Origin: Terriglobia bacterium
Lineage (GTDB): Bacteria; Acidobacteriota; Terriglobia; 20CM-2-55-15
Assembly (NCBI GenBank): GCA_963664115.2
Contig: CAXWPJ010000009.1
Coordinates: 512,001 to 576,000, forward strand
DNA length: 64,000 nucleotides
Direction: 5' to 3'
A program made the position numbers and the translations under genes. The first letter of the stretch is position 1, and each line of letters starts with the position of its first letter. Below, one piece after another: positions 36,956 to 57,916 of the stretch. Under the pieces are notes generated by a model, which saw only the letters and a program-made list of their open reading frames with translations, was not told where the DNA came from and searched no databases.

Positions 36956-38260
36956 TAGCGCGGCCGGCAGCAGATCCCTGTAGAACGCCGAGATCCGGCT
37001 GAGCGGGGCCACTTCCAACGTCGCCATTCCCAGCGTCGTCCCATCCGGCTGTAGTATGTAAAACTCTGCGGTGGCGTCCCCTTCGGTCGGGTTCACCAAT
37101 GCCAGGGCTGTAAAGAACCCATCCCCTTCGGCCAGTTTCTGGTACACATTCAGCTGGGCGCCTTCGGTCTCTTCCACTCCCGGGACCACCCAAAACGACG
37201 GCGTGTTCGTGTACCCCTGTCCCACATAGCTGGCAATCCGACCCACCAGGGACTCCACCTCAATCCAGCCACTTTCCAGCTCTTCGGTGCCGGCCACACT
37301 GAACAACTCCGCCACCGTTCCCCGCCAGCCCCCATTGGCCGGCAAGGTCACTGTTTTCGGGTTCTCGGCAAACGCCAACACACTGCCGTCATTGCCCCGC
37401 GCGGTCAACGTTACCGTCTGTAGGGTCTCGGCTGTGTTCACCAATCCCACCACCGACACCCAGCCGCCGCCGGTCACAAACTGGTTCAACACCTGCCGCT
37501 CGGCCCCACTGGGCGCCTGTCCCAGGATCACGCCCGACTCCCGCCCCAAATCGCTGCCCGATATCTTGAAGTCGGCGACCAACTCCTGGGCCGCGACCGG
37601 CCGGTCCGCTCCCACCTGAACGTGGGACGCTCCCTCCAGCGCCGCATTCGGGAACAAGCCTTCCAGCGTCTGCCGCAATATAGCTTTCGGCTCCAAAACC
37701 ACATCGGTCACTTCCAGGCTCTCGCCTTCGAACCCGTACAACACCAAGCCCACATTAGCGGCCTCGTCTCCCACGTTCACCACTGTCACTTCCGTCTTCG
37801 TCGACCCATCCTCCGCCGCCAGCGGCAGAACGAAGCGCACGCCCGAAACCGCCGCCAGACCCCCATCCAGGTCTGTTCCTGCCCCATTCCGGTTCAGCCC
37901 GAATCCGGTCAGTCCACGCGTCGCCGATGTCACCCGTACCCAGCCGTTGAAGTCTGCGCTTCCGAACAACTCCACATAGGAAAGGGCTTCCTGGCCCCCC
38001 GCCAGTATCGTCCGCGTCGTCGGGTTCTCCACCCCAACCACCAGACTCCCGTTCGCTTCAAACGCCGCATACGTCACCGTCACCGTCACCGCACTCGGAT
38101 TCACCACCACGAGTTCGGTCGTCACCTGATCACTCGATATCACTCGGGGAAAGTTCAGGACCGATTGGGCTGTCGCTACTGCCGGCGTCAGCAGGGCTGC
38201 CAGCACAGTCAGGGCCAATAGGCGGGTCGGACGGAATCTCATATGCGCCTTGCTTATCAA
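36956..38260 (-). pseudogene. Secreted repeat-domain protein truncated by IS630
   Basis: Signal peptide ending ATA-Q; four FP/LP...T.(L/V)..VN beta repeats; frame enters the IS at 36955. Confidence 0.75.
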
Positions 38261-38575
38261 AATCGACTAAGTGCTTGGAACTGGCAGGTTATCGTCAGGC
38301 CTCGTTTGTGTAAAGCGCATTCTTATCTTATGACGACTATCGCTTAGAGGCGATCGTAGCAGACCCGGCACGGGCAAAACTCACCCCCCGGCGCCACAAT
38401 GGGGAGGCATCCTGCCTTGTACAGGTATTCTCTACAGTGTGGCTCACGCCTCCGTGGTAAAAGAAGGAGTTGGCGCTGCGGCAAATCTGCCGGAAGGGCA
38501 GCCTTACACTCCAGGGGCGAAAGCAGTGATAAGACACAGACACGAAAAACGTTTCCTAATCGGAAAAGAGTGACT

Positions 38576-39091
38576 ATGAGACTACGTCGACTTTTAATCC
38601 TGATTTTTCTCTTCGCGTTTCCTCTGCACGCCGCGACGGTCCTACGTCTGGATTTGGATGGATTGGTATCGACCGCCCAGACCATCGTCGTCGGAAAGGT
38701 CAGGGACTCGGATACCTATTGGAGCGCCGATGGCCGTCTGATACTGACCCGGCATACGATCGAAGTAGCGGAAACCCTTAAGGGCTTTAACGATGAGACT
38801 GTTGAAATAACAACGATCGGCGGGACGATTGGCGATTTAACGCTATATGTTGCCGGAATGCCTGTCTTCGAGCCGGGCGAGGATACGGTTGTGTTCCTAG
38901 AGGCTGCGGGTCCTTACCGGACCGTCGTCGGTTTGGGCCAGGGAAAGTTCACGGTTGCCGACGACTTTGTGTCCAACAGTGTCTCGAGTCTGGAATTTGC
39001 TGACACGAGTCCCGGCCGCGTGACGCGGATGCAGTTCGCTCGATTCAAGAACGCTATCCGAGAACGGCTTGAAACAGGGAACGCGCGTTGA
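38576..39091 (+). CDS. Secreted small beta protein (TIMP/NTR-like pattern) coupled to the matrixin gene
   Basis: Signal peptide; LV..AQTIVVGKV...VAETLKG...GG..G...V.G.PVF..GE..VVFL. Confidence 0.65.
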   Translation: MRLRRLLILIFLFAFPLHAATVLRLDLDGLVSTAQTIVVGKVRDSDTYWSADGRLILTRHTIEVAETLKGFNDETVEITTIGGTIGDLTLYVAGMPVFEPGEDTVVFLEAAGPYRTVVGLGQGKFTVADDFVSNSVSSLEFADTSPGRVTRMQFARFKNAIRERLETGNAR

Positions 39092-42000
39092 GCAAACACT
39101 TCGCGTTGCTGATCCTGATGTTAATTCCCTGGCAATCTCTGTCCGGCTATATACGGATCACGACTTCCCTGGGCGCGACGCCGCGATGGGCCGAAACCGC
39201 AATTCCATACTCCGTCAGCGAGGCCGGGTCACCCCAGATACCGAATGGAAGCGAGTTTGGGGCGGTTGCCGCCGCCTTTGACGCGTGGGAAGGGGTTGCT
39301 GGCACCACGGTCGATTTCGAATTCCAGGGGACGACGCCCATACGCACCGCCGGCCGTGACGGAACGAACCTCGTCACCTTCGTGGATGACAGCGGCATGG
39401 GAGCTCTACTGGGAACGACGACGCTGGCGGCTACGTTTTCGTTCTTCAACAGGGTGGGAGGGGCACTCGTTTTCGAGGAATCCGACATCGCCTTCAATCC
39501 GTCTCACTCTCTCACAACCAGTGGCGAGCCTGACCGATTCGACATCCAGAGTGTTTTGACCCACGAAGTGGGACACCTGCTGGGACTCGATCACAGTGGT
39601 CTGATTTCCTCAGTGATGGCGCCGTTTGCCATTCAGGACCAGACCGATCAGCGGGTGTTGCTCTACGACGATATTGCCGGCGTCATCGAGATTTACCCGG
39701 ACGAGACCGCAACACCGGAGGTCGGCGTGATTCAGGGGACGGTCACCTTGAACGGGGCTGGGGTCTTCGGAGCCCACGTCGTAGCGATGGATTCCAAGGG
39801 AACGGTTATGACGTCCACGATGTCAGCGAGGGACGGCACCTACACCGTTCGATTTCTTCCCGTGGGCAATTACCGCGTGTATGCGGAGCCGCTGGATAAG
39901 CCCGTGTCGTCTCAACACCTTCCCGGTTTTTTCTCCGATCTGAATGTGGACTTTGGAACCACTTACTTTGGGGACACGCGGGTTCTCAGTGACGCCAGCA
40001 CCGTGGCGGCAACCTCCGGGGGGACGACCGGGGGCATTGATATCCATGTCCTGCCGGCGTCGATATCCGACTTCAATCTGACCCGGCCGGTATTCGCTCC
40101 ACGGATCAGTTCAGGAAGCCCGGAGACTCTTCGTGTCGGTGGTGAGAACGTCGTGGCTGGAGTTTCGTTCTCTGTGTCGACCCCTCTTATTCGTTTCGAC
40201 AGCATCAAATTCGGTGGTCGTCTCTCGACAACCGCGCCCACGAGCGCAACGCTGGAAACCGTGATCGATCCGGCCACACCCATCGGCCCCAAGAACGTGA
40301 GCGGGGCCTCGGGCTCTGACACCTCGGTGCTCAGCGGTGGGATCGTCGTTACGAATACTCCCCCTACCAACATCGAGGTGTCTCCATCCTCGGGCTTTTT
40401 TGAAGGCGGAATCCCCGTGACAATCAGAGGCCGGGACTTCCGTCCCGGAATTCGGGTGTTCTTTGCTGGGCTACCGGCAGAAAACGTCGCGTTCCTGAAT
40501 TCCGGCTTGCTCCAGGCAACAGTTCCAGCCAACTCTCCGGGACCGGCCAACCTTCAGTTGTTCAACACCGACGGTACCTCCGGCCTGCTCCTGAACGCCT
40601 TCAGCTATACGGCCCCACCTCCAACGGTTACCGATATCCAGCCCGGGAGCGGTCCTCCCGCAACATTGGTCATCATCGACGGCACTAACTTCGACACGCG
40701 CCCTCAAAACATTGTCGTGCGCTTTAACGGCTCCCGCGCACGAACGCTGAGCTCGACGCGAACCCGGATTGAGACCGTGGTGCCCTTCGGAGCGACTACT
40801 GGCCCGCTGACCGTGTCGGTGTTTGGCGTCGATACCGATGCGGGAACATTTACGGTGACCGCGCCCGAGCCGAGCGAGAATGTCGCGCCTGCCTTTGTGG
40901 AATTTTTGGATGCCTCAGTAGGGGCGGGTGGGACCGCGGCGAACTTTCCAGCTCAACCGCGGAATGGGTGCGAGAACAGTCGTGACGATGGCATCTATTT
41001 TCAGGATTTGCCTTTCAGCTTCAGCCTCTTTACTGACACGTTCATCGGCGGCACACCCGTCTCGATCGCGACCAACGGCTGGATTAGCCTGGACGGGACG
41101 TCCTTCTCCGAATTCCAGAATGCAGGCCTTCCCGCCGAGACCGTCATCCGGCCCAGCGGAGAGGATGGCGTCATTCCGCCGGCGTTGATTGCGCCCTTCT
41201 TTGACGACCTGATTCTCTGTGGAGGCGCTTCGGTCACGACCCGGATTAGGGGAAGCGCGCCGAATCGCAGTTTCGTTATTCAATGGTCGGGGCTATCGAT
41301 TCTGGACGAAGTTGGCGAGAACCTGGATGCCGATCTGACTTTCGAGTTGATCCTCTACGAGGGATCGAATGACGTCCGTTTTGTCTATGGAACTATGGCG
41401 GGCGCCCGGTCGGACGGATCCAGCGCAACCGTCGGAATGCAGAACGTTCGACGGGATCAGGCGGTTCAGGCGGGCTTCGATGAGAGCATTGTTGAATCCG
41501 GCATGGCCCTCACCTATAGGTTCGACGGGGGTGCCTATGTTGAGGAACGGACCGACGCCTCACGGCCAGGAAGACCTGTTGTTTCCGACGGCGGCGCCCG
41601 AACGGCCAGTCTTTCGGAACTTTTAGCGTCGTGGATCGCAGACCGGTTGGAGACCTCGATAGTCGAGTTCGAATACGCAATCGGTACGACGCCCGGTGGT
41701 AGCGATGTGCGTGGGTTCACGGCGGTTCAAAGCAACTCTATCGTTGTGACCGGACTATCGCTTGAAGAAGGCGCAATCTATTACTTTGCCGTGCGTGCGA
41801 AAAACGCGACAGGGCTCGCGAGTGAAGTGGGTGTGTCTGACGGAATCCTCATCGACACCTCCTTCATTCCGTCAACGTCAATTTTTCCCTCCCTACCGCA
41901 TAGCGCGACAAGTTTCGGAGGACTCGCGTTGATCGCCGAGCAGGATACCGACGTCGTACTCCGAGCGCTTGACTCGGACGGGTCCTTAGCGACGGGCTTA

Positions 42001-43044
42001 GGGATTCGGAACCCGACCCTGATCCACCTCCAGGCCGGAGAACAGTGGGTTCAGCTCATACCAGAGCTTTTCGGTCTGCTCTCCTTCACCGGATGGATCG
42101 AGTTGGAAGCGTCCCAAGCCAACCTGAAAGCTTATATGGCGACTGGCGCCAATGACTTCGATCAATTCGACGGCGTCGGGGCCGCGATTCCATCAAACGA
42201 TTTCTTCCTTCTCCACGACGGCGCCACCGGCATCCTCGTCAACCCTGGCACGGAATCGGTCACAGCCACGGTCACCGATCTCGACACAGATACGAGCCAG
42301 TTTTTGGAAATTCCGGCCCGGTCGCAAAGGACGACCCCACTGACGGGTCCGGTACGCATCACCGCGCCGGGAGCGATTGCGGCCGTTGAGCATTTTGGCT
42401 CCGAGCGGAAGTTGGCGATCGGGACAGCGGTTTCGGGCCCACAGTCGACACTGGTATTTCCATTTGCGGCGGTTGGCGGCGGTTTCCGTTCCTGGATCAC
42501 GCTCGTGAACACTTCGAGCAGTCCAGTAGGCGTATCGGTTGCGTTTAGAGGTTTGACGGAGTCCCTCCGGCTTGCCGGCCGGGCATACACACGCTTCCGA
42601 TTGTCCGAATTGTTCCCCATGTCCGCCGGGGTTCCCGAGTCTGGCGTCGTTCGCGTGACAGCTCTCTTCTCTGGGTCCCTCGTAGGAAGTATCGACATCG
42701 AAACAGATACGTCGCTGGTGACACTGGCGGCGGGCCAGGGAAGCACCCAGGTCGTGCTGCCCTATGTCGCCAACGGATATGGATTCTTCACTGGAGTCGC
42801 CGTGACAGCGGGCCGGTTGGGGGCGACAGTCACCGTTGAGGTTCTCTCAGCTTCAGGAAACGTCATTGCAACGGGCACCTTGAACGTTCCGGCGGAGGGC
42901 CACTTGGCAGATTTCCTCCCCAAGTTGATTCCCGGGTTTACAGATCAGATTGGCGGCTACATCCGCTTGCAGTCGGACCGACGGCTATGGGCATGGGAGA
43001 TCTACGGAACTGAGGTCTCCATGGGGTCGGGTCCACCGTTATAG
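39088..43044 (+). CDS. Secreted matrixin (M10) metalloprotease with IPT/TIG, NIDO-like, Fn3-like and C-terminal repeat domains
   Basis: HEVGHLLGLDHS plus Met-turn SSVMAP; GG.PVTIRG.DF and PGSGP....VIIDGTNF; IAPFFDDL; YYFAVRAKN. Confidence 0.9.
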   Translation: MSKHFALLILMLIPWQSLSGYIRITTSLGATPRWAETAIPYSVSEAGSPQIPNGSEFGAVAAAFDAWEGVAGTTVDFEFQGTTPIRTAGRDGTNLVTFVDDSGMGALLGTTTLAATFSFFNRVGGALVFEESDIAFNPSHSLTTSGEPDRFDIQSVLTHEVGHLLGLDHSGLISSVMAPFAIQDQTDQRVLLYDDIAGVIEIYPDETATPEVGVIQGTVTLNGAGVFGAHVVAMDSKGTVMTSTMSARDGTYTVRFLPVGNYRVYAEPLDKPVSSQHLPGFFSDLNVDFGTTYFGDTRVLSDASTVAATSGGTTGGIDIHVLPASISDFNLTRPVFAPRISSGSPETLRVGGENVVAGVSFSVSTPLIRFDSIKFGGRLSTTAPTSATLETVIDPATPIGPKNVSGASGSDTSVLSGGIVVTNTPPTNIEVSPSSGFFEGGIPVTIRGRDFRPGIRVFFAGLPAENVAFLNSGLLQATVPANSPGPANLQLFNTDGTSGLLLNAFSYTAPPPTVTDIQPGSGPPATLVIIDGTNFDTRPQNIVVRFNGSRARTLSSTRTRIETVVPFGATTGPLTVSVFGVDTDAGTFTVTAPEPSENVAPAFVEFLDASVGAGGTAANFPAQPRNGCENSRDDGIYFQDLPFSFSLFTDTFIGGTPVSIATNGWISLDGTSFSEFQNAGLPAETVIRPSGEDGVIPPALIAPFFDDLILCGGASVTTRIRGSAPNRSFVIQWSGLSILDEVGENLDADLTFELILYEGSNDVRFVYGTMAGARSDGSSATVGMQNVRRDQAVQAGFDESIVESGMALTYRFDGGAYVEERTDASRPGRPVVSDGGARTASLSELLASWIADRLETSIVEFEYAIGTTPGGSDVRGFTAVQSNSIVVTGLSLEEGAIYYFAVRAKNATGLASEVGVSDGILIDTSFIPSTSIFPSLPHSATSFGGLALIAEQDTDVVLRALDSDGSLATGLGIRNPTLIHLQAGEQWVQLIPELFGLLSFTGWIELEASQANLKAYMATGANDFDQFDGVGAAIPSNDFFLLHDGATGILVNPGTESVTATVTDLDTDTSQFLEIPARSQRTTPLTGPVRITAPGAIAAVEHFGSERKLAIGTAVSGPQSTLVFPFAAVGGGFRSWITLVNTSSSPVGVSVAFRGLTESLRLAGRAYTRFRLSELFPMSAGVPESGVVRVTALFSGSLVGSIDIETDTSLVTLAAGQGSTQVVLPYVANGYGFFTGVAVTAGRLGATVTVEVLSASGNVIATGTLNVPAEGHLADFLPKLIPGFTDQIGGYIRLQSDRRLWAWEIYGTEVSMGSGPPL

Positions 43045-43243: not shown

Positions 43244-46200
43244 GTGGTCAAAATGAACACATTGTTGCGACTTTTGTGCGCATTACTGGCGGTCACGTGT
43301 GTGGCCCTGCCGCTATCGGCCCAGTCTGTGTTCCATTTTCCCCGTGTCGCGGCCGGGGCCGGTTCGGTCACGAATTTGACCATCACGAACCTCTCACCGT
43401 CCCCAGCTGAGGTCGAGTTCGAGCTATTCGCATTGGACGGGCGCTTGGCGCCGTTGGCCATCAACCCCGTGCGCTACCGCATTGAATCAGACAGCGTTCT
43501 GTCGATGAGCACCGACACAATATTCGCGACGTCCGAGGCTGCGGGTTGGATTCGCGTCAGTAGCGAACAGTCAGGGTTAACCGCCCGGCTTCTGACAGGT
43601 GATTTGGTCTCGCGCCTGGAGGGCATTGGGGGCACTTCTCCGATAGGGGACCAACTTGTCGTTGTCCCGATAGATGATCCACTCGTAGTACGTGAGCTGC
43701 GGGTGGTCAATCCTTCGGAAGGTCTCGCTGGGGTCAACGTGACCGTTTTCGATAGCCAGGGGAACGCTATCGGGACAATCCCCGTGGCCTTGGAAGCCCA
43801 TGCCGGCGCCGACCTGAATCTTGCGCCGTTTCCAACTGGGGTGGCCGCACGGATCAGTGCAAGTCGACCCATTTTAGCGCAGGCTGTTCTTAGCGCGAAC
43901 AGTAGTCTAATGTTACTGAATGGCCAGGCCGCGTCTGAACTTGCCGCGCCGTTTCGAGTTGCGCCACACGCCGTAATCGGCAACGGTTTCGAATCAACGC
44001 TTATCTTGTCGAATCCCACCGGACAGTCTATCAACGTGTTTGCTACGTACTTCAGCGAGACAGGCTCCGGGCTTGATCCATCCCAGAGTGCGCCACCCAG
44101 GCAGCGCTTGAGTATTCCTGCAAACGGCAGCGTGTCGGTCGGCGTTGGAGAGCTCACCGGACTCGGGTTCAATCCTCCCTCAAGTGGCTGGATTGAGATC
44201 GAGTCTCCAAATGTTCCGCTGGTGGGTGCACTCGTTGTTTCCGGGGGAACAAATCGGACGGCACATCGACTACAGACTGAGCCACGAGCGGATATGTTGT
44301 ATTCAAACGCGGCTGATTTTGAAGTCGAATCTGTCGAACTGGTGCTGAGCAATTTGGAGTTTGTGGACGCGGAATTGGAGCTTTTGGCTATAGACGAGAA
44401 CGGATTCGTGATCACTACCGCGTCGGCTGTCGTCGGGGGACGTTCCAAGCAGACGTTGCGTGTTAGAGACCTGCTTCCGCGTTTTGATCTGAATCATGCC
44501 GGATTTCTTGCGGTGAAAAGTTCGGCACCGATTTTCAGCGTTGGGGTGCTCACCGGAATAAATTCTAGGGGCCTTGAGGGATTCGAGCCGGAGGTTTTGG
44601 CGGAGCCTTTCGAACCCCTTATCGCTCCGATCCGGCCCAGGATAACGTCCGTCGAGCCACAAGAGGTTCGACCTGGAGACAGCCTGCAAATTTTGACGGG
44701 ACGACTGGATTTGGGGAGTTCGTTGCTGTTTAGCGACGGTGTCATAGACTCTGATCCTTTCGTTGCTTTCGGTATTACTGTCTTCAACATTGAGGTTCCT
44801 TCCCACTCGCCGGGATTCGTCGATATCCGGATTCGTTCCTCGGATGGAACCGAATCCGCGCCCCATACGATCTTAGTGCTTCCATCCGATCAAACGCCCC
44901 TTCGCGAAGTACGCGGTCGAGCCTTTTACGAGAAAATCGACCTCGGACCAGATGGGCTCGATCTGTCGCAACCGGTCATGGTTCCGATTCGTGAAGCACG
45001 AATCGATGTGTTCGACCCATTGACCGGTGAAGTGTTTTCAGTTGGAGGTACCGATCGACATGGGAACTTCCGGGCGGTTCTCCCTTTCGGTTCAGACAGC
45101 ATTTTGCGCGCCTTGAGTCAATCGTCGGATTCTGTCCTCACGGTAGCGGACAACACGCGTGGCGGCGCGATCTACTTCGTAAGCACCGAGATCGATGCTG
45201 AAGTGTCACCCCTGTTGGTCGCGTCGGACGCGACCCGCGCTTCGGGCGCCTTCAATATCCTGGAAGTTGTCCGACAGGGAAACGATTTTCTCCTCGAGAT
45301 CGATCCGGACCTGCGCGTGCCAAACCTGAACGTCTTCTGGAGCCCAAATAATAGAGCGGTGGCGGGTAACATCGAGGCAGGTCAAATCGGTGGTACGTTC
45401 TTCAACGCAGAAACGAATACGGCCTTCATGTTGGGAGACCGCGCGACGGATTCCGATGAGTTTGACGACTCCGTCATTCTCCACGAATATGCACACCTGC
45501 TGGCAACCCAGTTCTCCAGAGACGATTCGCCCGGCGGCGCCCATTTACTGGGCGATGTACTCGATCCGAGAGTGGCCTGGTCGGAGGGATGGGCGAATTT
45601 CTTTTCTGCTTGGGTTCGAGACAATCCGATTTACAGAGATTCTCTTGGCTTTGGTGGGGAGTCGGTTCTGGAGCACAACCTTGAAGACAACGTGATTATC
45701 GGGGACCAACCCGGCTACTGGAGTGAGTTTTCCATCCATTCGATCCTATGGGATCTAGCGGACTCGAGCCCGGACACCGGAGATAATTTCCAGGTTCCAT
45801 TTGATGCTATTTGGGAAGCATTCCTCCAGTTGAGCGATGACAGTTTCGTCTACGTTCCGTCGTTCCTGGATCGTCTGACATCGTTGTTGCCAGCAGAAGC
45901 ATTCGGAATCGAGCAGCTTGCGCGCTTCGGTTCCATCGACTATGTCGCCTCGGCCGAACCTAGCGTGTCGAATCCTTTCCCGCGTTTCGTGCCAGCAACC
46001 GGAGCGGTCACCGGCGAGGTGGATTCGCTTTCAAGAAGGCGTGCCAACCTGGCGCAATCCGCACACCTCTATGTTTTCGATGTGAGTGATGGGGCTGTCT
46101 CCATACGCCTGGACATTACAGGGTTGGGCCCGGGCCAAAATCCAAACGCAAACGATCTGGATCTGTTCTTGTTAGATTCCCAGGGTCGGGTTCTGGCACG

Positions 46201-46444
46201 ATCGGACCGCGGGCTCAACGGGCAATCCGAGCTGATCTCGAGGTCCCTTCCCGCCGGCCGCTATGTTGTTGAGATCCGGAGTTTCTATACTCAGGGAGAG
46301 ACCGGAACGTTCGTCTTTAATTCCGGTTCTTACAACTTGCGGATAGCGGTTCAGTGGGTGACATTCCCAAATGAATCAGGAAGCCGTGTGGTAGGAACCC
46401 AGAGCGCCGCCGTCGATGCCGTCGAGCGCCTTCAGGGTGTCTAG
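43244..46444 (+). CDS. Secreted zinc metallopeptidase (gluzincin-like) with N-terminal repeat domains and C-terminal PPC domain
   Basis: ILHEYAH plus downstream AWSEGWANF; DLDLFLLDSQG...E.I...LPAGRYVVEI. Confidence 0.85.
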   Translation: MVKMNTLLRLLCALLAVTCVALPLSAQSVFHFPRVAAGAGSVTNLTITNLSPSPAEVEFELFALDGRLAPLAINPVRYRIESDSVLSMSTDTIFATSEAAGWIRVSSEQSGLTARLLTGDLVSRLEGIGGTSPIGDQLVVVPIDDPLVVRELRVVNPSEGLAGVNVTVFDSQGNAIGTIPVALEAHAGADLNLAPFPTGVAARISASRPILAQAVLSANSSLMLLNGQAASELAAPFRVAPHAVIGNGFESTLILSNPTGQSINVFATYFSETGSGLDPSQSAPPRQRLSIPANGSVSVGVGELTGLGFNPPSSGWIEIESPNVPLVGALVVSGGTNRTAHRLQTEPRADMLYSNAADFEVESVELVLSNLEFVDAELELLAIDENGFVITTASAVVGGRSKQTLRVRDLLPRFDLNHAGFLAVKSSAPIFSVGVLTGINSRGLEGFEPEVLAEPFEPLIAPIRPRITSVEPQEVRPGDSLQILTGRLDLGSSLLFSDGVIDSDPFVAFGITVFNIEVPSHSPGFVDIRIRSSDGTESAPHTILVLPSDQTPLREVRGRAFYEKIDLGPDGLDLSQPVMVPIREARIDVFDPLTGEVFSVGGTDRHGNFRAVLPFGSDSILRALSQSSDSVLTVADNTRGGAIYFVSTEIDAEVSPLLVASDATRASGAFNILEVVRQGNDFLLEIDPDLRVPNLNVFWSPNNRAVAGNIEAGQIGGTFFNAETNTAFMLGDRATDSDEFDDSVILHEYAHLLATQFSRDDSPGGAHLLGDVLDPRVAWSEGWANFFSAWVRDNPIYRDSLGFGGESVLEHNLEDNVIIGDQPGYWSEFSIHSILWDLADSSPDTGDNFQVPFDAIWEAFLQLSDDSFVYVPSFLDRLTSLLPAEAFGIEQLARFGSIDYVASAEPSVSNPFPRFVPATGAVTGEVDSLSRRRANLAQSAHLYVFDVSDGAVSIRLDITGLGPGQNPNANDLDLFLLDSQGRVLARSDRGLNGQSELISRSLPAGRYVVEIRSFYTQGETGTFVFNSGSYNLRIAVQWVTFPNESGSRVVGTQSAAVDAVERLQGV

Positions 46445-46567: not shown

Positions 46568-48886
46568 GTGAACCGAAGGAGTCCCACCAAGGTCATCATC
46601 GTCTTGCTTGCTGCAATCGCGGCTTTTCTGGTTCCAGCCTTTCCGACCGCTGCTCAGGCTGTATTTGGTCTCAGCAGCAGCACAGCCACGGTCACAGAGA
46701 CGGGTCATGCGGAACTGCTGGGAACGATTAACGCAACGATCAGCTCGGGTACGTCGGCCGCGGGAACGCTGGAAGTCAGCATCGCGCCGGCCACGCTCGT
46801 CACCGACGAAACGAGCGGCGTGACGGTAACGGGAACGGGAGGACTTGCTGGAGCATCGGTTGCAAACGTGATTGAAAGCTTGGGACTTGTCGTTATCGAC
46901 ATCCCTGCCGCCGCGGGCGCCGGCTCCACTCTGACCCTGACAGGAATGCGCATCTCAATTCCCGAAACCGATGTTGAGAATTTCAACACAGTACTCTCCG
47001 TCAACAATAACTTCCTGCAGGCTGGCCAGAGCGGCATTTCGCTTATAGCAGACACTGTGGCAGGACTTGTCGTTGACGACGACGCGGATGTAATCTTCAG
47101 CATTGTGAACCGGACCATCGTCGACGACATGGAAGCCTTCAAGTTCCGTGAAGGCTGGGACGGCGCCTTTTCCGACAAGGTCGGTATACTGGGGCAAACT
47201 GCCCCCACCGAAGTCATATTCGAAATTGATGGCATCCCGGCAAACGTCACGGTCACATTTCCGGACACGATCAACAGCAAGACCACAGGAGCCACTTTGA
47301 CGACGGAGAGTGGCGATCCCGAAGAGTTCACCAGCAGCAGCGAACCCCAACGCGTTGCTTACGAATTCACGGACGATCTGCCGTCAAGCGATGAAGAGGT
47401 AGATATTTTCGAGGTGACTCCCACCTTGACGCTCGGATCTTCCGTCGAGAACGGGACCGCCTTGATCCGGGCCACGCTGGGCCCGATCGGGGCCGCAACT
47501 CCCAGCACCGAATTCCCCTTGACGGACCTTCCCCGGTTTGATGAGGAGTTGTTGCCAGCCCTTGCCCTACCCGGAAGCTCGTCCACCACCCTGCTGCACT
47601 TCCTAATTTCCAACGCGTCGTCCCAGAGCCAGCTTGCCCTCGGGAACACCGGCAGCGGGGGTGCGCAGTTGGAGATCCGGGCCCTCGGGGAGGATGGCGC
47701 CATTCTCGACGATGGAAGTGCTGTAACGTCCCAAACTCTTCAGGGACACGAAACGTTGGTGTCTTCGCTCGACGAACTTTTCGGTGATTCTCTGTCGAGC
47801 GACATCGCCTCAGTAGAGGTCGAAGTCGTCAATCCGAACGTGATTGGAACCGTGACGGGAACGGGAAGTGCGGGGCGGTTCTCAACACCTGAAATCAAAG
47901 ACCGGAAGAAATTGTACCTACCTTTCGATCGCGCCCTGGCCACGGATGACCCAACCCTGGTGATCAACAACGCGAACGAAGATCCCATCGAGGTGACTCT
48001 GAGGGTCCGCGACAGCCTGGGAACCACAATCGAGACGATCACAGAATCGATCGACGCGGCAGCCACGCTCCGCTCTCCGCTGACAACGCTCTTCGATCTG
48101 GAAGCGGGCGCCCTTCCGATGAAGGGCTATGTCAGGCTGACAGCTGCGGACAACTTTCGCGCGAGTTTGGTCGATACTCCTGATGGGTTTTCCGAAGAAG
48201 TCCCCGGTCTTGGGCCGTTCGGCCAGAGCCGACACATTTTCCCCGCTTTTCTTTTCGGCGAGGGCTGGCGGACAACCCTAACGCTTGTCAGCGCCGCAAC
48301 CTTTTCGGCAAACGTGACCGTAACGCTCCGGGACGCTACGGGTGAAGTCGTTACCGGCACCGCACCCCTCGTAATCAGCGTGGCCACCGATGAACGCGTA
48401 GACCTGGACCTGGAAGCGCTCTTCGGCACCGGAACGCTGACTCTCGGGTACATCGACATTCAATTTCAGGGCCTGCCGCTTCTGGGCAGCCCCGATTTCG
48501 CTGGCATGGTCCGAATCGGAAGGGCGAACTTTTCGGCGACGACGGCCCTTCCTACGAATCCAGACACTGAATTTTTCCTCGTGCCAACAGCTCAATCGGA
48601 ATCGGAGTTTACGGCTTTGGCCATCTTCAATTTTTCAAGTTCCGTAACGGAAGTGACGGTGGAAGTCTTCGACAGTGATGGCACAAACCTCGGCGCGAAT
48701 ACCTTCGAGCTGGACCCACGGGCAGTGGATATCCGGCTCGTTCGAGATCACGTGAATGAAATTCTGGACAGCGAAGACCGCTTGATCCGAGTGACAGCGG
48801 AAGGCGGAACAGTTGAGATGGTTGCCTATCGCGGCACGATGACCTTGGAGGAAATGTTCAACATCCCGGTTCAGGCTCCGCAATAA
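46568..48886 (+). CDS. Secreted acidic protein: S-layer-like N-terminal half plus repeat domains
   Basis: Signal peptide; N-half resembles 50169-51695; FP...GEGW.TTLTLV and FTALAIFN repeats. Confidence 0.7.
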   Translation: MNRRSPTKVIIVLLAAIAAFLVPAFPTAAQAVFGLSSSTATVTETGHAELLGTINATISSGTSAAGTLEVSIAPATLVTDETSGVTVTGTGGLAGASVANVIESLGLVVIDIPAAAGAGSTLTLTGMRISIPETDVENFNTVLSVNNNFLQAGQSGISLIADTVAGLVVDDDADVIFSIVNRTIVDDMEAFKFREGWDGAFSDKVGILGQTAPTEVIFEIDGIPANVTVTFPDTINSKTTGATLTTESGDPEEFTSSSEPQRVAYEFTDDLPSSDEEVDIFEVTPTLTLGSSVENGTALIRATLGPIGAATPSTEFPLTDLPRFDEELLPALALPGSSSTTLLHFLISNASSQSQLALGNTGSGGAQLEIRALGEDGAILDDGSAVTSQTLQGHETLVSSLDELFGDSLSSDIASVEVEVVNPNVIGTVTGTGSAGRFSTPEIKDRKKLYLPFDRALATDDPTLVINNANEDPIEVTLRVRDSLGTTIETITESIDAAATLRSPLTTLFDLEAGALPMKGYVRLTAADNFRASLVDTPDGFSEEVPGLGPFGQSRHIFPAFLFGEGWRTTLTLVSAATFSANVTVTLRDATGEVVTGTAPLVISVATDERVDLDLEALFGTGTLTLGYIDIQFQGLPLLGSPDFAGMVRIGRANFSATTALPTNPDTEFFLVPTAQSESEFTALAIFNFSSSVTEVTVEVFDSDGTNLGANTFELDPRAVDIRLVRDHVNEILDSEDRLIRVTAEGGTVEMVAYRGTMTLEEMFNIPVQAPQ

Positions 48887-48902
48887 CCGTAACCGGAGAG
48901 TC

Positions 48903-50024
48903 TCACCGCGAAACTGGCTGACCGATATCGCGCAGAAGCCGCTCAAAATCTTCTTGTCGGAGTGAATCCGAAGGGCTCTCTCTCAGGTATTCGATCGGAA
49001 TGTTCAGGCGTTCACGGCCGAAAACCTCAGGATCAACCTCGATGTCAACAGAAGTACGTCGGCGACGGTCGTGGGCCTGGAACCGGACGATAACTTGAGC
49101 CACATCCCCCGGGGCCAAAATTTCCGGACCCTGGAACTCGACTTCGTACTCCTCGTTTCGGCCTGTGACACGCGGTATTCGGAAAGGCTCTGCGGCCAGA
49201 TTCTCTATAACGATTTCCAGTTCGCCATCCACGCCAAGATCGACGACTTCCGGAATCTGCGAAAATCGGATACGGCCGTCAACGTGACCAATAAACTCCA
49301 ATGTCGCAGCGGTTTCCAGGCCACCTCTCCTAATAGTAAACGAAATTGGCTGGCGCACGTCGGAAGATGTCAGCAAGGTGTCCCAGGAGTAGCTCATACG
49401 GCCTCTTGTCTCATCGATCCACACGGGCCGGCCAAAACGCAGACCTTTGGGCAGGCTCCGCGTGGAAGTCAACACGGTACGGATGCGGCGCGGGTCACCA
49501 CTGAACTCAACAAAGCCTTCAACAGTCTCTCCCTGAGTGATCGGGCCCACCTCCAGACTGGACGCCAGGAACTCAAACTCTAAGGACTCCTCACCCCCAC
49601 TAGACTCGGATTGCGATGCCCCGCTCGTTGCAACGCCGAAGGGACCGGCCCCAACGTCATCCATCCGATAGAACCAATCTCCTTCTGTCCAGATCCATCG
49701 GTCCGCAGACGTCACCTCAATTTCTCCCAGCCCCGGAATCTGCAGGTGTAATCGCGTAGGTACGTTGACGGCTGTGTTGTCGCCAGTGAACTCCAAACCA
49801 GTGATGTCGGCTCGTAGGATCTGATCACTCTGCCCCTGAAGGAAGCGTTCGCGGTCCGCCGGGAGGACATAGTCCAGGGCTGAAAGCTGGTTTCCAGCCA
49901 CTCTGGCGATCCAGTACTCATCGATTCGCACCCGCAGCTGGTCCAAGTCCTGAGCCAAGCCGGTCCCACAAGTAAACAGACTAAGCAGAGTGAGGCAGAG
50001 GGCCACTCGGCTCATGATGGGCAC
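48903..50024 (-). CDS. Secreted hypothetical protein with Ig-like domains
   Basis: Signal peptide; LRVRIDEYW...W....DWF N-domain; VGPITQGE and LAPGD..QV.V.F motifs. Confidence 0.6.
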   Translation of the reverse strand: MPIMSRVALCLTLLSLFTCGTGLAQDLDQLRVRIDEYWIARVAGNQLSALDYVLPADRERFLQGQSDQILRADITGLEFTGDNTAVNVPTRLHLQIPGLGEIEVTSADRWIWTEGDWFYRMDDVGAGPFGVATSGASQSESSGGEESLEFEFLASSLEVGPITQGETVEGFVEFSGDPRRIRTVLTSTRSLPKGLRFGRPVWIDETRGRMSYSWDTLLTSSDVRQPISFTIRRGGLETAATLEFIGHVDGRIRFSQIPEVVDLGVDGELEIVIENLAAEPFRIPRVTGRNEEYEVEFQGPEILAPGDVAQVIVRFQAHDRRRRTSVDIEVDPEVFGRERLNIPIEYLRESPSDSLRQEDFERLLRDIGQPVSR

Positions 50025-50072
50025 CTATCATCGAAACTCAACAGATCTTCGATTGTCAAGATTCCAAACCTT

Positions 50073-50103
50073 AAAAAAGGGGGAGTGAATTCACTCCCCC
50101 TTT
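50073..50103 (-). terminator. Strong intrinsic terminator
   Basis: Perfect palindrome AAAGGGGGAGTGAATTCACTCCCCCTTT, with a T6 tail on the minus strand. Confidence 0.85.
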
Positions 50104-50168
50104 ATGGACATGGTGACTATGTCAAGCCACCATATTTTTAGTTATACAGAGATTCGCCACTACCCGGG

Positions 50169-51695
50169 TCACGGCCGCTGAGTACCCGGGTTCGGGACCA
50201 CCAGAACATCGGCGGCCGCCGTAATACCAGCCAAGTTGGTGATATAACCCACACCGCGCGCATGAGTGAAGTTGGTCTCGACGAACACGTAGCCGGTGAA
50301 CGAGGCCGCATCGTCAGATTCGGCGGCGGTCAGGATGTCAGCGATCGATACCAAATAGGTATTACCCGAAACCAACACACCGTCGTCGTCCAAACCACTG
50401 CCCACGGTTGGGTCCGCATCAGTCGACCACATAACCATATCCCCACCGCTCGGGAACAGCCAGAACGTCAGCGTTCCGGCTGCCCCACCTGCGCCATCGT
50501 CACCGAAGGGGTCGGCCGTGGTGTTGGAAATGCCCATGATGCTGGCCAGGCCTTCGGTTGACACGAAGGGCATCAGCAGCGTCGTCGTCGCCGGAACGAT
50601 GTCGATGAGATCGATGGCGTCGGTAAAGGTTTCAACATAACGGGGAATGGCGCCGTCGGCTGTGTCGCTTCCGATAACGTCGTCATCCTCATCGAGTGCG
50701 TCGCCATCCGGAGAGAGCGAAACCCGCACCGAGATCGTCGCCGGAGCAAACGGGAGTTCGTCGTCATCAACTACGATCCCGTCACAGCCGACCGTTATAT
50801 CGCTTATAGCAGTCGTTGTTGCCATACCCATCAGTTCGAGAATTTCCCTATCATTATCGACATCAAACGTGACTTCGGCGACATCCGCAAAATCAGCGTC
50901 AGTCAGATTGGTGGTTGCGGTGACGGCTTACAATTAAAAGTCAGACCATCCGGAATACCGATCATCTCGACCACAACGGTAACGCCTTTATCGGTGGCAC
51001 CCGAGAACTGACTTCCATCTTTGAACAGGTCGATGAAGTTCTCGGTAATTGTGAAATCAGCCATATCATCGGCGATCGTACCGTCTGTGAAGAGCCTTGC
51101 TTCATTACCGTCCAATTCATCGAGGCCAGCAACAACGGCCGTGACGACTCGGGCAACGTTCTGGCCTGCCGTGATGAGATAACCACTTCCGGAAGTAACA
51201 GAAATATTGGCATCCAACATTGAGAACCCACTTCCGGCAACGGATACCAGGACATTCTCAAGCGTGAACGTACCCGTGTCACCGTCGACGGCGGCACCGG
51301 TTCCCCCCAACGTAATGACAACAATTCCGCTCTTGTTGTTGACTGAGGCAAAGGTGGGAACGCCCACAGCAGTCCAAAGCCTGTTCATGTCACCAGCGTC
51401 CGCGTCCACGGTAATGTCCTCATCGCCTGAACTATCACCATCGTCATTCGTGTCACCGTCGTTCGTAATGAGGACGCCGCCGAAATCGACCGTTCATCGA
51501 CCCACCTAAGGGAGTAAAGCTCGACTGCGCCTCGCAGATAAAAGTCAGGTCGCCCACCGGCTCGGTGTGCCCGGATAAAGTCGCCCGGCTGACCGGCGAG
51601 CTCGCTACCGAGCACGTGATCTGAGCGTAGGCCGCGTTGGACATCCCCATGATCAGGAACAGCGCCATCAGCGGCACGAACAGTTTGAATCTCAA
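50169..51695 (-). CDS. Putative S-layer/major surface protein (about 505 aa), split by two apparent frameshifts
   Basis: AAGGAG RBS, signal peptide AAYA-Q, Asp/Thr/Gly/Val-rich sequence; contiguous fragments 51453-51695, 50903-51409 and 50169-50831; TTLLMPFV, ISNTTADPFG, FTGYVFVETNFTHARG. Confidence 0.6.
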
Positions 51696-52193
51696 TTGTA
51701 TCCTAGTCTCCTTTAGAAGAAATTTTTGCTCACTGTGTAGTTAACAAATCAGAAAGTTTCTGGTTCAAGACTTCGGTTGCGGTCAAACGTTTTTCACGCC
51801 GGACGGCCAACCGGTCATCCCCGATTGTTAAACCTCTCGTAAAAAGCTCCACCCCAAAACGCGGGCTAACCGTCGATAAGCTAACATTAGTGCAATAACG
51901 TGTCAACACTAATGATTCCAAGAGCTTCCCCGCCTGCAGGCAATTCGGTGAGGCCCTCGTCACCCTCGCGGTTCATTCTGCTAAGGCATTCGACAGGCCA
52001 AAAAGACTCAAAGGCAAATTATAGAGAATAAAGGACCGCGGCTGGATGAGACGGTCATCGATACGCACGTTTGCCTCACGACGGACCGGATCGTGTTTAA
52101 TTTCGACTCATGCGGAGCGCTATCGAGAAATTAGGGACCGAGGAATCCTGTGTGTCCTGATCACTGAGCCGCTTTCTAATCATCGAGCCGTTC

Positions 52194-53228
52194 TTAATTA
52201 GTGAGCCGGACCTCGGCAAACTCAGGGAATACGTTTCGTTCGATGCGGGCGAGGGCAGTCCTTCGTTCGAAGAAACCCGTCGCGGGGTTCAGTCGGTTCG
52301 TGGAGTGATAGACCCTCCGGAGGGAGCGGCGCGTGCCGCTGCCTTCTATTGCATGCCCAACGGCCAAAACAGCTGTCGCATCGCCACGAGCGAATTGAAG
52401 GTAATCCAGTAAGGGGGCGGTATCTGGTAAACCCACCCTCGATGCGAACTCGGCAGAACTTCCGAAAAGGATGCGGGCACGTTCCTCGATGATGCGCTCG
52501 ACCCGCGGCGGGTCCAGACCTGGAACTGCTTCCAGGACCCAGCGCGAGGCGAAGTTGGGATTCACACGGGCACCCACCGGGGAAGTGGTCAAGTATTGGT
52601 CTAAGCGTCCACGAAAAACTCGACCGTCACGGGTTTCCATAAGGCTCGGACGGAGATCCTCGAGCCGTATACCCCGGATCAAGGGAAGATCTGAGATCCC
52701 GGGCTGTCCGTTTCTCGGTGCGTAGCCCGAGCCGAGATAAGCGAGGGCCTCGGCCCCAAGCAAACGGGGCGTTTCGTCTGGATCCGTCCAATCCTGAAAT
52801 GCCTGGGTGAGCCTCTCGCCCTCCCGCGGGTCTCGGGTCCAATTGGAAAAAAAGCTCCGGAGCAAGATCTCTGGAGCCGTCAGGGGATTAATCTTTCCAT
52901 TATCGCCCTCGAAAAACAGGTCCACGGAGCCTTCAGGAAAACCGATCCTGTAGTGGAAGCCTTCATCCATGATTTCAATGGGAAGACCCGCCAGGTCTTC
53001 CTGGGCGCTACCGAGCCCACGGACTTCGAGGTAGGGCGCCATCTCCAATCCTGCCATCGCCAGCCGTTCGGCACCGAGGGCTTCCCGCTCGTTGGCGGCA
53101 ATGCGCGCCTCGACGCCTGCGGCCGCCGTCAAACTCAAAGCAATGGACGAAACGATGATGAGAACCCAAAGGACGGTCAACAGTGCAAAGCCCCGCTCGA
53201 CCCTCATCGAAGCACCAGCCCATCCCAA
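52194..53228 (-). CDS. gspK: Type II secretion minor pseudopilin GspK
   Basis: RGFALLTVLWVL, GKINP, DWTDPD, PRNG, VNPN.A...L..VPG. Confidence 0.88.
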   Translation of the reverse strand: MGWAGASMRVERGFALLTVLWVLIIVSSIALSLTAAAGVEARIAANEREALGAERLAMAGLEMAPYLEVRGLGSAQEDLAGLPIEIMDEGFHYRIGFPEGSVDLFFEGDNGKINPLTAPEILLRSFFSNWTRDPREGERLTQAFQDWTDPDETPRLLGAEALAYLGSGYAPRNGQPGISDLPLIRGIRLEDLRPSLMETRDGRVFRGRLDQYLTTSPVGARVNPNFASRWVLEAVPGLDPPRVERIIEERARILFGSSAEFASRVGLPDTAPLLDYLQFARGDATAVLAVGHAIEGSGTRRSLRRVYHSTNRLNPATGFFERRTALARIERNVFPEFAEVRLTN

Positions 53229-53854
53229 TTCGTTTGGGCGTAATCCAAGGGAAGCAAAATCTGGCGCGGTCGTTCACCTTCGAAACCAATCACGATACGA
53301 ACCGCGGCAGGCAGTTCCCTGCCCTCCTCACCCTGCCAGGCGTCAATCCATTCGGCATCGCGTCCGAGCCTCGGGCGCCGCAGGTAGGCGATATCTAAGG
53401 ACTCCACGCCCGACAAATAAAGTGTGTCATAGGGCTCCATTTCGGCAGAATTATCTGGAGAAAGAACGCGGCGTTCTTCAATGGCGAGACGCGGATCGAC
53501 GGCATCTCTGTCCCAGTAGATCCGAATCCAACGTGGGACAGAGTCCGGCCGTCGGAAACTCTTCGGTGACACAAGGTCGAGGCGGGCTGCGGAACCCACA
53601 AAACCCAATCGCTCGCCGTCTTGGGTTCGGAAGGCGAGAGGCAACGCCGATTGAATCTGATCGCGAAGAACAGCCACACTCGTATTCCGCTCGCGCGATT
53701 GGTCTATGCGCTCATAGCCCGTCGACCACATCGTCAACGAGCTGCCTAGAGCTGAAAACGCGACCGTCACGACGAGACCCAGTATAGAAAACGCAACGAC
53801 GAGTTCGATGAGTGTAAAACCCCTGTCTCGCACTTGATTCTCAGCCGAGGGCAT
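53204..53854 (-). CDS. gspJ: Type II secretion pseudopilin GspJ-like
   Basis: RGFTLIELVVA prepilin motif; C-terminal W...W.....LPAAVRI. Confidence 0.8.
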   Translation of the reverse strand: MPSAENQVRDRGFTLIELVVAFSILGLVVTVAFSALGSSLTMWSTGYERIDQSRERNTSVAVLRDQIQSALPLAFRTQDGERLGFVGSAARLDLVSPKSFRRPDSVPRWIRIYWDRDAVDPRLAIEERRVLSPDNSAEMEPYDTLYLSGVESLDIAYLRRPRLGRDAEWIDAWQGEEGRELPAAVRIVIGFEGERPRQILLPLDYAQTNWDGLVLR

Positions 53855-54278
53855 TGAGCTGCTCCGCCAGAGGTCGAGGCTCCTCAGGAGCTGGGGCTAA
53901 GACCCGATAGCTATGGATCGTCCAGGTTCGAACACCCGAGCGGCCGTCCCACTGGAGTTCGAGCGCGATCCGAACGACGGCTAAATTACCGAACCGCGTG
54001 TCGGGAGCGATATAGGGCAGGATTTCAATGCGCCAAGCAACATCGTCATCGGACCTGCCGGATGCGGTATCGCCAATCCGCAGCGTAGGCACAAGGTCGA
54101 TTTGGGCCAGTTTCAGGCGGGCAAAATCCATGCGCCGCTGGGCCCCTTCCGTTTCCACGGTCGTCCGCAATGAAGTCGACATCCCATTCATAACGACTGA
54201 AAAAGATATGGCCAGTATAGCGACGGCAACCATCACCTCCAGAAGAGTGAATCCTCCCTGCGTACTGCCTGTTTTCAA
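53841..54278 (-). CDS. gspI: Type II secretion pseudopilin GspI-like
   Basis: GGFTLLEVMVAVAIL; position in H-I-J-K order. Confidence 0.8.
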   Translation of the reverse strand: MKTGSTQGGFTLLEVMVAVAILAISFSVVMNGMSTSLRTTVETEGAQRRMDFARLKLAQIDLVPTLRIGDTASGRSDDDVAWRIEILPYIAPDTRFGNLAVVRIALELQWDGRSGVRTWTIHSYRVLAPAPEEPRPLAEQLNALG

Positions 54279-54739
54279 CGTTCTCCCTCTACAAAACGGG
54301 CTTCATAGCCGTCAATGACGATCGCTCCGCTTCGCCCGCTGCTGCTGGTCAGATCGAGGCGCTGGGGACCCAGAATGTGGCCGGAACGCGACACGACATA
54401 AACGCCGTCATAAGCTCCGTCCCTGGCCGAACCTGCGGAAACACCGGCCGGTAAAACAATTTCTTCGAGGATTGCTTCCCCACGGTCAAAGACGACCAAG
54501 CGATCCGAGTTGAGAGCGATGAAGTGTTCTTCTTGCGCGAGCCGGGACTGGGCCTGAGCCCTACGGAAGCTATGCTGCAGCTGCCGGCCAAAAGTCCGGA
54601 AGCGCAGGTTATCCACGGTGTTCCCGACAGCGGGCCCGACGAGAGTCATGGCCAGAGCCAACAAGGCCAACACGACCATCAGTTCGATCAATGTAATACC
54701 GCGGGATCGGGGTTTGAAATTCTGTGAGCGGAGACGCAC
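54275..54739 (-). CDS. gspH: Type II secretion pseudopilin GspH/FimT-like
   Basis: RGITLIELMVVLAL; first gene of the H-I-J-K run. Confidence 0.75.
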   Translation of the reverse strand: MRLRSQNFKPRSRGITLIELMVVLALLALAMTLVGPAVGNTVDNLRFRTFGRQLQHSFRRAQAQSRLAQEEHFIALNSDRLVVFDRGEAILEEIVLPAGVSAGSARDGAYDGVYVVSRSGHILGPQRLDLTSSSGRSGAIVIDGYEARFVEGER

Positions 54740-57914: not shown

Positions 57915-57916
57915 TC

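Follow-up and report, generated by a model that had tools for sequence, protein, structure and literature searches.

Organisation of the locus

The window, a stretch of 64,000 nucleotides from a contig of a Terriglobia bacterium, contains on its reverse strand a gene (50138..51695) for a secreted protein of ~ 515 residues, here called the major protein. It consists of a signal peptide of the Sec type, read by eye, two Ig-like domains (D1 and D2) and a C-terminal hub of predicted ASRAH fold (D3, from ~ 50590 to the gene end, same strand); it is all-beta in the model of an orthologue and has no membrane anchor. The assembled gene is interrupted by three frame breaks, at ~ 51493, 50925–50928 and 50178–50180, and once these are counted the stop is at 50138 instead of 50169. 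The breaks at ~ 50928 and ~ 50180 are missing in all four DNA runs and that at ~ 51493 in three of the four; because the other run, X1, has the same 51493 break as the assembly, the gene may be genuinely broken in the source strain. A programmed frameshift is unlikely, since the extra bases are absent from the read contigs. The sponge-metagenome runs contain small shares only; a sponge habitat is a lead, and the bacterium is a probable sponge associate.

A Shine–Dalgarno sequence, AAGGAGA (51707..51713, reverse strand), lies 11 nt 5′ of the TTG start. Two hairpins follow the stop (50070..50135, reverse strand), in a region whose folding (z = −5.8) was equalled in stability by none of 200 shuffles, and the second of them (50076–50103), with a 12-bp stem and a U-run, is an intrinsic terminator, which a simple terminator scan did not pick up. 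A promoter scan upstream of the gene found none, and the folding of its 5′ region is no more stable than that of shuffled sequence (z = −0.7). The three pieces of the gene hold 77 D/E against 11 K/R, and the median net acidity of 113 full-length homologues is 1.3%. The acidic secreted gene with strong ribosome-binding site and terminator of the preliminary description is thus present in all three respects, but its end was misplaced at 50169 and its acidity is not family-wide. RNA contigs of all four runs overlap parts of the major gene, a coverage that gives no gene ranking; the protease genes described below are scarcely covered, in runs that were picked with 48900–52200 and likewise provide no ranking.

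The gene at 48903..50024 (reverse strand) encodes a further secreted protein, the companion, whose Ig domains are of the DUF1573/HYDIN type (51% and 11% of the first-hit cluster). Beyond it, on the forward strand, lies the hybrid gene (46568..48886), in which a D1–D2 arm (46655–47575) is followed by four tandem ASRAH repeats (47576–48883). Two large protease genes on the same strand have intact zinc motifs, as had been described. In one (43244..46444) an N-terminal four-repeat module (~ 43319–44640) accompanies a PPC domain and an HEXXH motif at 45482 with a downstream Glu; searches of Pfam and NCBIfam matched no catalytic family, and it is a candidate gluzincin-type protease. The other (39088..43044) is of the M10 matrixin type (PF00413, 54.5 bits against a cut-off of 24), with HEXXHXXGXXH at 39562, TIG domains and a C-terminal four-repeat module (~ 41863–43041). 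A small secreted partner gene (38576..39091, forward strand) overlaps its start; on contig C10 a paralogue of this partner lies before a further M10 gene. The gene at the left edge (36959..38242, reverse strand), described earlier as an Ig-like secreted protein, has a signal peptide and four repeats, and proves to be the N-terminal part of a larger gene that an IS630-type element (35802..36958, reverse strand; with 31 genomic matches longer than 1000 nt) interrupts within repeat 4. Its best orthologues are open frames of 870–5115 residues.

On the other side of the major gene, profile families type the minor pseudopilin genes gspH, I, J and K (52194..54739, reverse strand), as had been noted, and the remainder of the type II secretion system (T2SS) is found 3–13 kb past the right end of the window. 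There, lipid A acyltransferase, wzt and wzm genes are followed by gspD, C, M, L, G, F and E and an ECF sigma factor gene (G000:C9:575800-588800), with gspC–G, L and M at most 37 kb from the major gene. A complete T2SS cluster therefore adjoins the major gene, which stands at the end of the T2SS operon. The source genome has three further secretins. A small unnamed secreted gene (54890..55285, reverse strand) is near the locus in five of ten relatives. The glycan genes reported next to the T2SS are present (56652..63893, reverse strand; GT4, methyltransferase-GT2, GT2 and CmcI-type), but they make up the distal stretch of an O-polysaccharide cluster of the Wzm/Wzt type, which runs on past the window. 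Judged from gene content, this set and the lipid A acyltransferase point to an LPS anchor and not to the S-layer glycosylation suggested before.

The major-protein family and its conservation

The major protein, annotated at source as a hypothetical protein, belongs to an unnamed family of 3,054 clusters in the Acidobacteriota. Neither Pfam nor NCBIfam supplies a name for it, S-layer families were matched by none of 17 members and none of eight D3 pieces, a PDB sequence search with the family alignment returned nothing at E ≤ 1, and no match was found in plasmids and phages. Among near-identical strains, variation is 3.7% inside the gene and 0.5% outside it. Only 5 of the 55 listed changes in the gene are synonymous, against 25% expected; the differences are mostly amino-acid changes, located in the Ig-like arms, a bias that points to exposure outside the cell.

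The family and its synteny with the T2SS and the companion are shown by comparison of genomes. A T2SS lies within ~ 10 kb of the major gene in 13 of the 20 same-family genomes carrying the gene and in all four genomes of family f50, the companion gene lies within the same distance in 18 of the 20, and the hybrid is within 25 kb in 10 of the 20; a hybrid keeping one whole subunit is found in 15 of 24 genomes. This linkage supports the earlier suggestion that the major protein is secreted, tied to the T2SS and S-layer-like, with a paralogue as adaptor. No linked T2SS was found in G036 (75 kb), G168 (60 kb), G028 (39 kb) or G006 and G016 (40 kb), and only 1 of 14 Bryobacterales/Terriglobia-type loci has one within 8 kb. 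In some lineages a hub-only gene of ~ 200 residues adjoins the T2SS, again followed by the companion gene, so that the arms are dispensable there. The synteny expected of the proteases did not hold: their catalytic domains occur in none of ten 40-kb regions of relatives, and genome-wide an M10 gene lies no more than 25 kb from the major gene in none of 17 carriers and a gene for the second protease in 1 of 22, many of the contigs being short. Downstream in relatives is a membrane-plus-TPR protein that presumably resembles a TMTC-type O-mannosyltransferase; for its membrane part, none of three Pfam matches was meaningful and the PDB gave no sequence match.

The hub domain and the four-repeat modules

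Both models of the major protein were built from an orthologue and not from the protein of the window. That of the G013 orthologue (pLDDT 91.5, pTM 0.84) predicts three domains, two Ig-like arms and a C-terminal domain of the TM1070/ASRT (ASRAH) fold. Of 48,161 chains compared, TM1070 is the closest to D3 (Z 11.3, rmsd 2.1, 103 aligned residues), and ASRT matches with Z 8.1 and rmsd 2.9 over 94. D1–D2 resemble the adhesin/pilin Ig folds of PrgB (Z 10.1, rmsd 4.7) and SpaP (Z 9.6, rmsd 4.7). The proposed check by structure model and Foldseek thus delivered a three-domain fold from the orthologue, but in Foldseek the orthologue and module models matched only multi-domain structures, at low TM (0.35 or less).

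With four copies of D3 the prediction is a ring, scoring 0.94 against 0.00 for the best control, on a mark that 20 of 30 solved pairs reached, as did 1 of 23 single chains, in a calibration on two copies, not four. The four-copy runs have at least 95% of contacts in common, with pLDDT of at least 90; the contacts are head-to-tail and the near-invariant Y442 is among the best-placed pairs. The model may have reproduced the ring from known TM1070/ASRT tetramer structures. The predicted self-association covers one symmetry axis of the major protein, that of the ring. The conserved Asn that ends strand 2 in ASRAH domains is present in D3 (N365, invariant in 123 sequences, closing model strand 357–365) and in the module (N24, N132, N239 and N352, kept at ≥ 90%), the equivalence being judged by position. 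The D3 consensus, DTGIAIAN, does not contain the His/Cys ligand motif of the ASRT family.

Each of the four genes described above as repeat carriers (the hybrid, both proteases and the IS-truncated gene) contains four tandem homologues of D3. This homology is shown at the level of sequence profiles: HHalign relates D3 to module repeats 1–4 with 94–96%, against 0.1–0.4% for D1 or D2. The hybrid is one whole major subunit plus three additional hubs. The profile of the family's N-part matches its residues 30–328 (E = 7e−34), and alignments of family and hybrid match across 402 columns with 99.9%, which takes the paralogy well outside anything expected by chance. The four motif pairs on which it was proposed are all present (51572/46703, 50956/47234, 50648/47528 and 50585/47585). 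In a word-index search the hybrid matched only itself and one relative.

The model of the module (pLDDT 93.7, pTM 0.92) predicts rigid packing of the four repeats, and its best structural match is again TM1070 (Z 13.7, rmsd 2.2, 105 aligned). A threefold module of three repeats was abandoned after the four repeats were resolved. Four copies occur in 10 of the 18 repeat-bearing frames of the source genome, and the module is placed at either end of unrelated cargo; of 143 stored D3 proteins, 139 have one copy and four have exactly four. The sole match in a PDB sequence search with the module was ASRT (E = 0.03). At E ≤ 0.1, 31 of 40 module sequences matched DUF5719 in Pfam and 10 of 40 ASRT (PF07100), whose best score in the source genome (13.6) is below the cut-off of 25; six of the 40 matched Slr4 (best E 2e−6, one above cut-off). 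Module-bearing genes are found in all 24 same-family genomes, the major gene in only 20 of the 24; G025 and G033, class relatives with clear modules, gave no match to the major gene.

A candidate square S-layer

We think it probable that the product of the gene at 50138–51695 is the building block of a square (p4) S-layer and is exported by the T2SS. The T2SS encoded around the locus would export the major protein, four D3 domains would close into a ring forming the fourfold node of the lattice, and the Ig-like arms would point outward and join neighbouring rings. The companion, likely a chaperone or assembly factor, may chaperone the hub, and the ABC-exported O-antigen may tether the layer. 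Single-chain four-repeat modules could mimic the shape of the ring, such that proteases and giant surface proteins would replace a node or use the same anchor; this docking of cargo at fourfold nodes we put forward tentatively, at a little below an even chance. It would offer a concrete mechanism for the enzyme display proposed in the preliminary description, but synteny of the proteases with the system is not supported. Taken as a whole, with subunit, export, ring node and docking modules together, the explanation is in our judgement slightly favoured.

An alternative is a secreted, tetrameric, sugar-binding adhesin without a lattice, with modules that bind glycans independently and so anchor enzymes to LPS or to polysaccharide of the matrix. 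ASRAH domains have been proposed to bind sugars in clefts to which the dimer interface contributes, and the Chloroflexi amidase tetrads need no S-layer (PMC2739507); D1–D2 resemble the adhesin and pilin folds of PrgB and SpaP, modules exist in genomes where the major gene was not found, and diversifying selection fits an adhesin too. What makes us consider an adhesin unlikely is the position of the major gene as the last gene of a complete T2SS operon, with a strong ribosome-binding site and terminator of its own, the link to Slr4 and a layout common to three proven S-layer loci, and the conserved hybrid with one whole subunit (15 of 24 genomes), which is more easily a part of a lattice.

The ring might instead be mainly an export tag, where T2SS and companion recognise the folded tetramer and the cargo copies that tetramer but ends up outside any lattice. 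T2SS substrates are recognised in the folded state, hub and companion remain next to the T2SS even without arms, and the module occurs at either end of unrelated cargo. Such a tag would leave the retained arm of the hybrid unexplained, module and major gene exist in genomes without a linked T2SS, and there are the three other secretins of the source genome; we regard it as improbable. An export tag is compatible with an S-layer. Least credible, and very improbable, is a filament or periplasmic-scaffold subunit served by a PapD-like chaperone: the DUF1573/HYDIN-type Ig domains of the companion and the likeness of D2 to pilin-like folds (Z 6–7.7) would suit it, but those Z values fall within what the tool states as background, no usher or sortase gene is among the typed neighbours, D3 is predicted to form a closed ring, and the amino-acid-biased variation suggests exposure outside the cell.

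The square S-layer, if correct, provides a named S-layer candidate for the Acidobacteriota, within a family of 3,054 clusters, and a testable role for DUF5719-like modules. To our knowledge, little is known of enzyme display by Gram-negative S-layers; a pseudo-symmetric single-chain node, if true, would add a new mechanism of display and could serve directly as a tag in the engineering of protein lattices, and the strong amino-acid variation makes the arms a likely surface for phage or host interaction. More speculatively, and with rather less than even confidence, several Acidobacteriota lineages may have an undescribed square S-layer with an ASRAH-tetramer node, in which DUF5719-like modules are single-chain copies of the node that arose more than once and serve as plug-in tags, through which the lattice takes up proteases and adhesins as long as 5,000 residues. 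Slr4 would then end in the same hub, and the T2SS-exported tetragonal S-layers would be united as one superfamily.

Comparison with known systems

A 2024 survey, in the part available to us, describes it as ambiguous whether Acidobacteriota have S-layers (bioRxiv 10.1101/2024.05.28.596244), and the accessible part of a review of S-layer structures does not treat Acidobacteria, Aeromonas or Slr4. The solo protein TM1070 is tetrameric, and in secreted proteins ASRAH domains occur as dyads or tetrads; the families described are intracellular solo proteins, Chloroflexi amidase tetrads and actinobacterial lipoprotein dyads (PMC2739507). Our hub and modules share the fold of this superfamily (TM1070; ASRT, PF07100; DUF5719, PF18986) and, by prediction, its tetramer or tetrad form. 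None of the three families is an arm-bearing, T2SS-linked protein with a single hub, and ASRT proper has a His/Cys signature in strand 2 that D3 does not share.

The vapA, slr4 and npdA genes each adjoin a T2SS cluster, so that Slr4 of Pseudoalteromonas (PF19526), which forms a proven square lattice, and NpdA of Paracidovorax/Delftia are, like the major protein, encoded beside a T2SS. Module repeats match Slr4 profile positions 268–325 of 370, in a stretch of 41–55 residues, and there is a weak atlas lead to Slr4 at 0.87; the major protein itself, unlike Slr4, has no PF19526 match, and none of 21 genomes reaches the cut-off in a six-frame search. In the sections consulted, the Aeromonas layer is described as tetragonal and LPS-tethered, with a Sec-secreted subunit of ~ 500 residues, and T2SS and vapA of A. 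salmonicida as interleaved with wzm/wzt (PMC4483657); a table gives its symmetry as p4 (PMC11410804). The companion, the hybrid and the four-repeat cargo modules are not described in those sections. Compared by layout and description, the sps T2SS with vapA/ahsA/avsA, set within an O-antigen cluster of the ABC type, corresponds to our locus, where a full T2SS and wzm/wzt likewise flank a secreted subunit of ~ 500 residues, and AvsA has been modelled, as the orthologue of the major protein is here, as two Ig-like domains followed by a third beta-sandwich.

Sequence and variation of the major gene

The genes listed in the preliminary description are all present in the window, and the ribosome-binding site claimed for the major gene, a good one, was found ahead of a TTG start at 51695, as was a strong terminator 3' of the gene end. 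The extent proposed there, 50169–51695, stands at the start but not at the end, which lies at 50138 in the contig-implied frame. The gene is fragmented in this assembly. Extra bases at 50925–50928 and 50178–50180 are absent from the contigs of all four DNA runs (four studies), and an extra base at 51493 is absent in 3/4 DNA runs and 4/4 RNA runs, run X1 having the same base; thus, the first two breaks are probably assembly errors, whilst that at 51493 may be real in this population. The protein has the predicted C-terminal tail E-x-L-x-x, shared by 79 of the 113 full-length homologues.

Variation was counted over the listed RNA contig pieces, excluding IS pieces and those below 20 nt. Inside the major gene 120 of 3,248 bases differ, against 14 of 2,889 outside. 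Of the single-base differences listed, 5/55 are synonymous where 24.9% is expected (binomial P 0.003, the sites not being independent), as are 0/18 of the isolated ones. The C-terminal hub, D3, holds 2 of the 33 differences in run X4. A conserved hub with variable arms is compatible with an exposed coat. Five relatives (G006, G016, G022, G168 and G015) carry the gene in two or three copies, in tandem in G015, possibly for antigenic variation.

Predicted structure of the major protein

The intact orthologue from relative G013 (46% identical across the C-terminal piece; 123 sequences in the alignment) was modelled with pLDDT 91.5 and pTM 0.84. D1 (1–155) and D2 (156–341) have Ig-like folds, matching adhesins and pilins at rmsd ~ 3–5. 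D3 (343–475) resembles TM1070 (Z 11.3) and ASRT (Z 8.1) and is, in this model, an ASRAH fold. Excerpts of PMC2739507 describe TM1070, a solo form, as a tetramer and secreted ASRAH domains as dyads or tetrads. Four copies of D3 are predicted to form a complex with a score of 0.94 (best control 0.00); the mark applied to this score is reached by 20/30 solved pairs and 1/23 single chains. The runs have ≥ 95% of contacts in common at pLDDT ≥ 90, and every copy contacts two neighbours through differing faces in a ring-like arrangement. Since a similar tetramer is already solved, the prediction may reflect likeness rather than binding.

Two of the top matches to the major protein, P0098 and P0128, have two D1–D2 arms and lack the hub; the arms are therefore also reused independently.

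The four-repeat module

A region of ~ 430 residues with four repeats is common to the hybrid gene (46568–48886), the zinc protease genes 43244 and 39088, and the IS630-cut gene at 36959–38242. In profile alignments D3 matches the individual repeats at 94–96%, against 0.1–0.4% for D1 or D2. The module is modelled as a single rigid unit (pLDDT 93.7, pTM 0.92) whose best structural match is again TM1070 (Z 13.7). In the hybrid, D1, D2 and repeat 1 align to the complete major protein (402 columns, 99.9%), so that the gene corresponds to a subunit with three extra hubs.

D3 occurs in 143 of the 152 proteins compared, as one copy in 139 and exactly four in 4, three of which are fused to cargo; this set was chosen by score and is biased against two or three copies, though not against five. 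Of the 18 frames in this genome that bear the repeat, 10 hold four copies; three copies, two copies and a single copy occur in 3, 2 and 3 frames, respectively, as counted with a profile partly derived from these modules themselves. The module was found in 24/24 same-family genomes, in frames of up to 5,115 codons. Pfam matches among module sequences are to DUF5719 (31/40), ASRT (10/40) and Slr4, an established square S-layer family (6/40; best 2e-6, profile positions 268–325).

Distribution and genomic context

Matches to the C-terminal piece of the major protein were found in 19 of the 24 same-family genomes, a twentieth being located later, mostly in open frames of ~ 530–640 codons. The profile search returned 3,054 clusters at 50% identity, for which atlas and source labels indicate Acidobacteriota; 26 of 301 genomes in a phylum sample have matches. 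Four families carry the full-length form and several others a hub-only form of ~ 200 aa. No Pfam or NCBIfam family gives the protein a name. Separately, 48/77 homologues sit on contigs ≤ 2.3 kb, many of 1.8–2.0 kb, a length close to that of one transcript.

Beyond the window, a lipid A acyltransferase, wzt, wzm, gspD, C, M, L, G, F, E and an ECF sigma factor lie on the same strand as gspH–K (52194–54739) and the major gene. Two relatives (G017, G018) have the order gspE to D, major gene, companion, GT2, membrane-TPR protein, GT4. Linkage was counted by hand in the 20 same-family genomes carrying the major gene: T2SS genes lie within ~ 10 kb in 13, were not found nearby in 3, and in 4 the contigs are too short to judge. 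The companion (48903–50024 here) lies within ~ 5 kb in 18 and the hybrid within 25 kb in 10. The two proteases occur, scattered, in 17/24 and 22/24 genomes, and their distance to the major gene is 25 kb or less in 0 and 1 of these. The proposed synteny is thus borne out for T2SS, companion and hybrid and fails for the proteases, whose position here is not conserved and whose tie to the system rests on the shared module. Elsewhere, T2SS linkage is 4/4 in family f50, 3/5 for hub-only genes (two of these then followed by a companion-like gene) and, within 8 kb, 1/14 in Bryobacterales/Terriglobia-type loci; no T2SS was found in the 39–75 kb examined around the gene in G036, G168 and G028. In G021, all that was found of the major gene between gspK and the hybrid is a short remnant (L047:19504–19617), and no companion was found in that interval.

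The hub-only secreted genes of other families (L158:9631–10233, L159:9472–10089, L160:10219–10878 and 14518–15120; ~ 200 aa) lie beside T2SS genes and an ECF sigma factor, behind an unnamed ~ 550 aa gene with weak FG-GAP matches, and could represent a minimal S-layer.

In at least nine relatives (L040:828–3715, L033:15412–18290, L104–L108, L112, L113) a GT2 of 224 aa, whose best NCBIfam matches (AglJ and dolichyl-phosphate hexose transferase) fall below cut-off, comes after the companion, together with one to three membrane-plus-TPR genes. The products of the latter have no family match and, we presume, resemble TMTC O-mannosyltransferases; these genes may be the actual protein-glycosylation set. 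This genome has distant matches only, located elsewhere. A GH114 glycoside hydrolase gene (55420–56571) separates gspH from the glycan genes and lies on the opposite strand to them; it was not found in the regions of 10 relatives. The window also holds a vitamin K-dependent gamma-carboxylase-like gene (7716–11114; HTTM and lumenal domains), split by a transposase with a twin at 28337–29869, and an ABC transporter cluster (18045–23456) including DUF7088, DUF4350 and DUF4340 genes, which we take to be of the Gld type.

Proposed assembly and comparison with known S-layers

The system is real, conserved and unnamed. We propose that the subunit would cross the inner membrane by Sec, fold with the companion and be exported by its own T2SS, whereupon it would form rings through D3, with the arms joining these into a square lattice that O-antigen would hold in place. 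The four-repeat module would be this ring copied in a single chain, so that cargo could occupy a node or be held by the same anchor. The hybrid, which has a single arm where a ring has four, may belong at an edge or a defect or serve in nucleation. Three rival explanations can be set against this lattice: a lectin outside any lattice, the anchors being independent; a tag for export; and a filament.

A literature search, mostly of papers outside subscription, returned nothing linking an Acidobacteria S-layer protein to type II secretion, nothing on DUF5719 and nothing joining a sensory rhodopsin transducer to an S-layer; by title it gave no acidobacterial S-layer protein, and PMC5900883 has one incidental passage. 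A 2024 survey (bioRxiv 10.1101/2024.05.28.596244) calls Acidobacteriota S-layers ambiguous.

In the portions consulted of the respective sources, T2SS clusters adjoin vapA, slr4 and npdA (PMC10765051; PMC7821379), and in A. salmonicida the T2SS and vapA lie between wzm and wzt and the layer is tetragonal and LPS-tethered (PMC4483657; PMC11410804). We liken the locus to the vapA, slr4 and npdA systems in the way it would work. The major protein falls outside Slr4, whose profile gives no match to it; its three-domain plan is the same as that of the AvsA model in bioRxiv 10.1101/2025.04.15.648961. The locus is a candidate new form of T2SS-exported S-layer, with a display mechanism that is possibly new.
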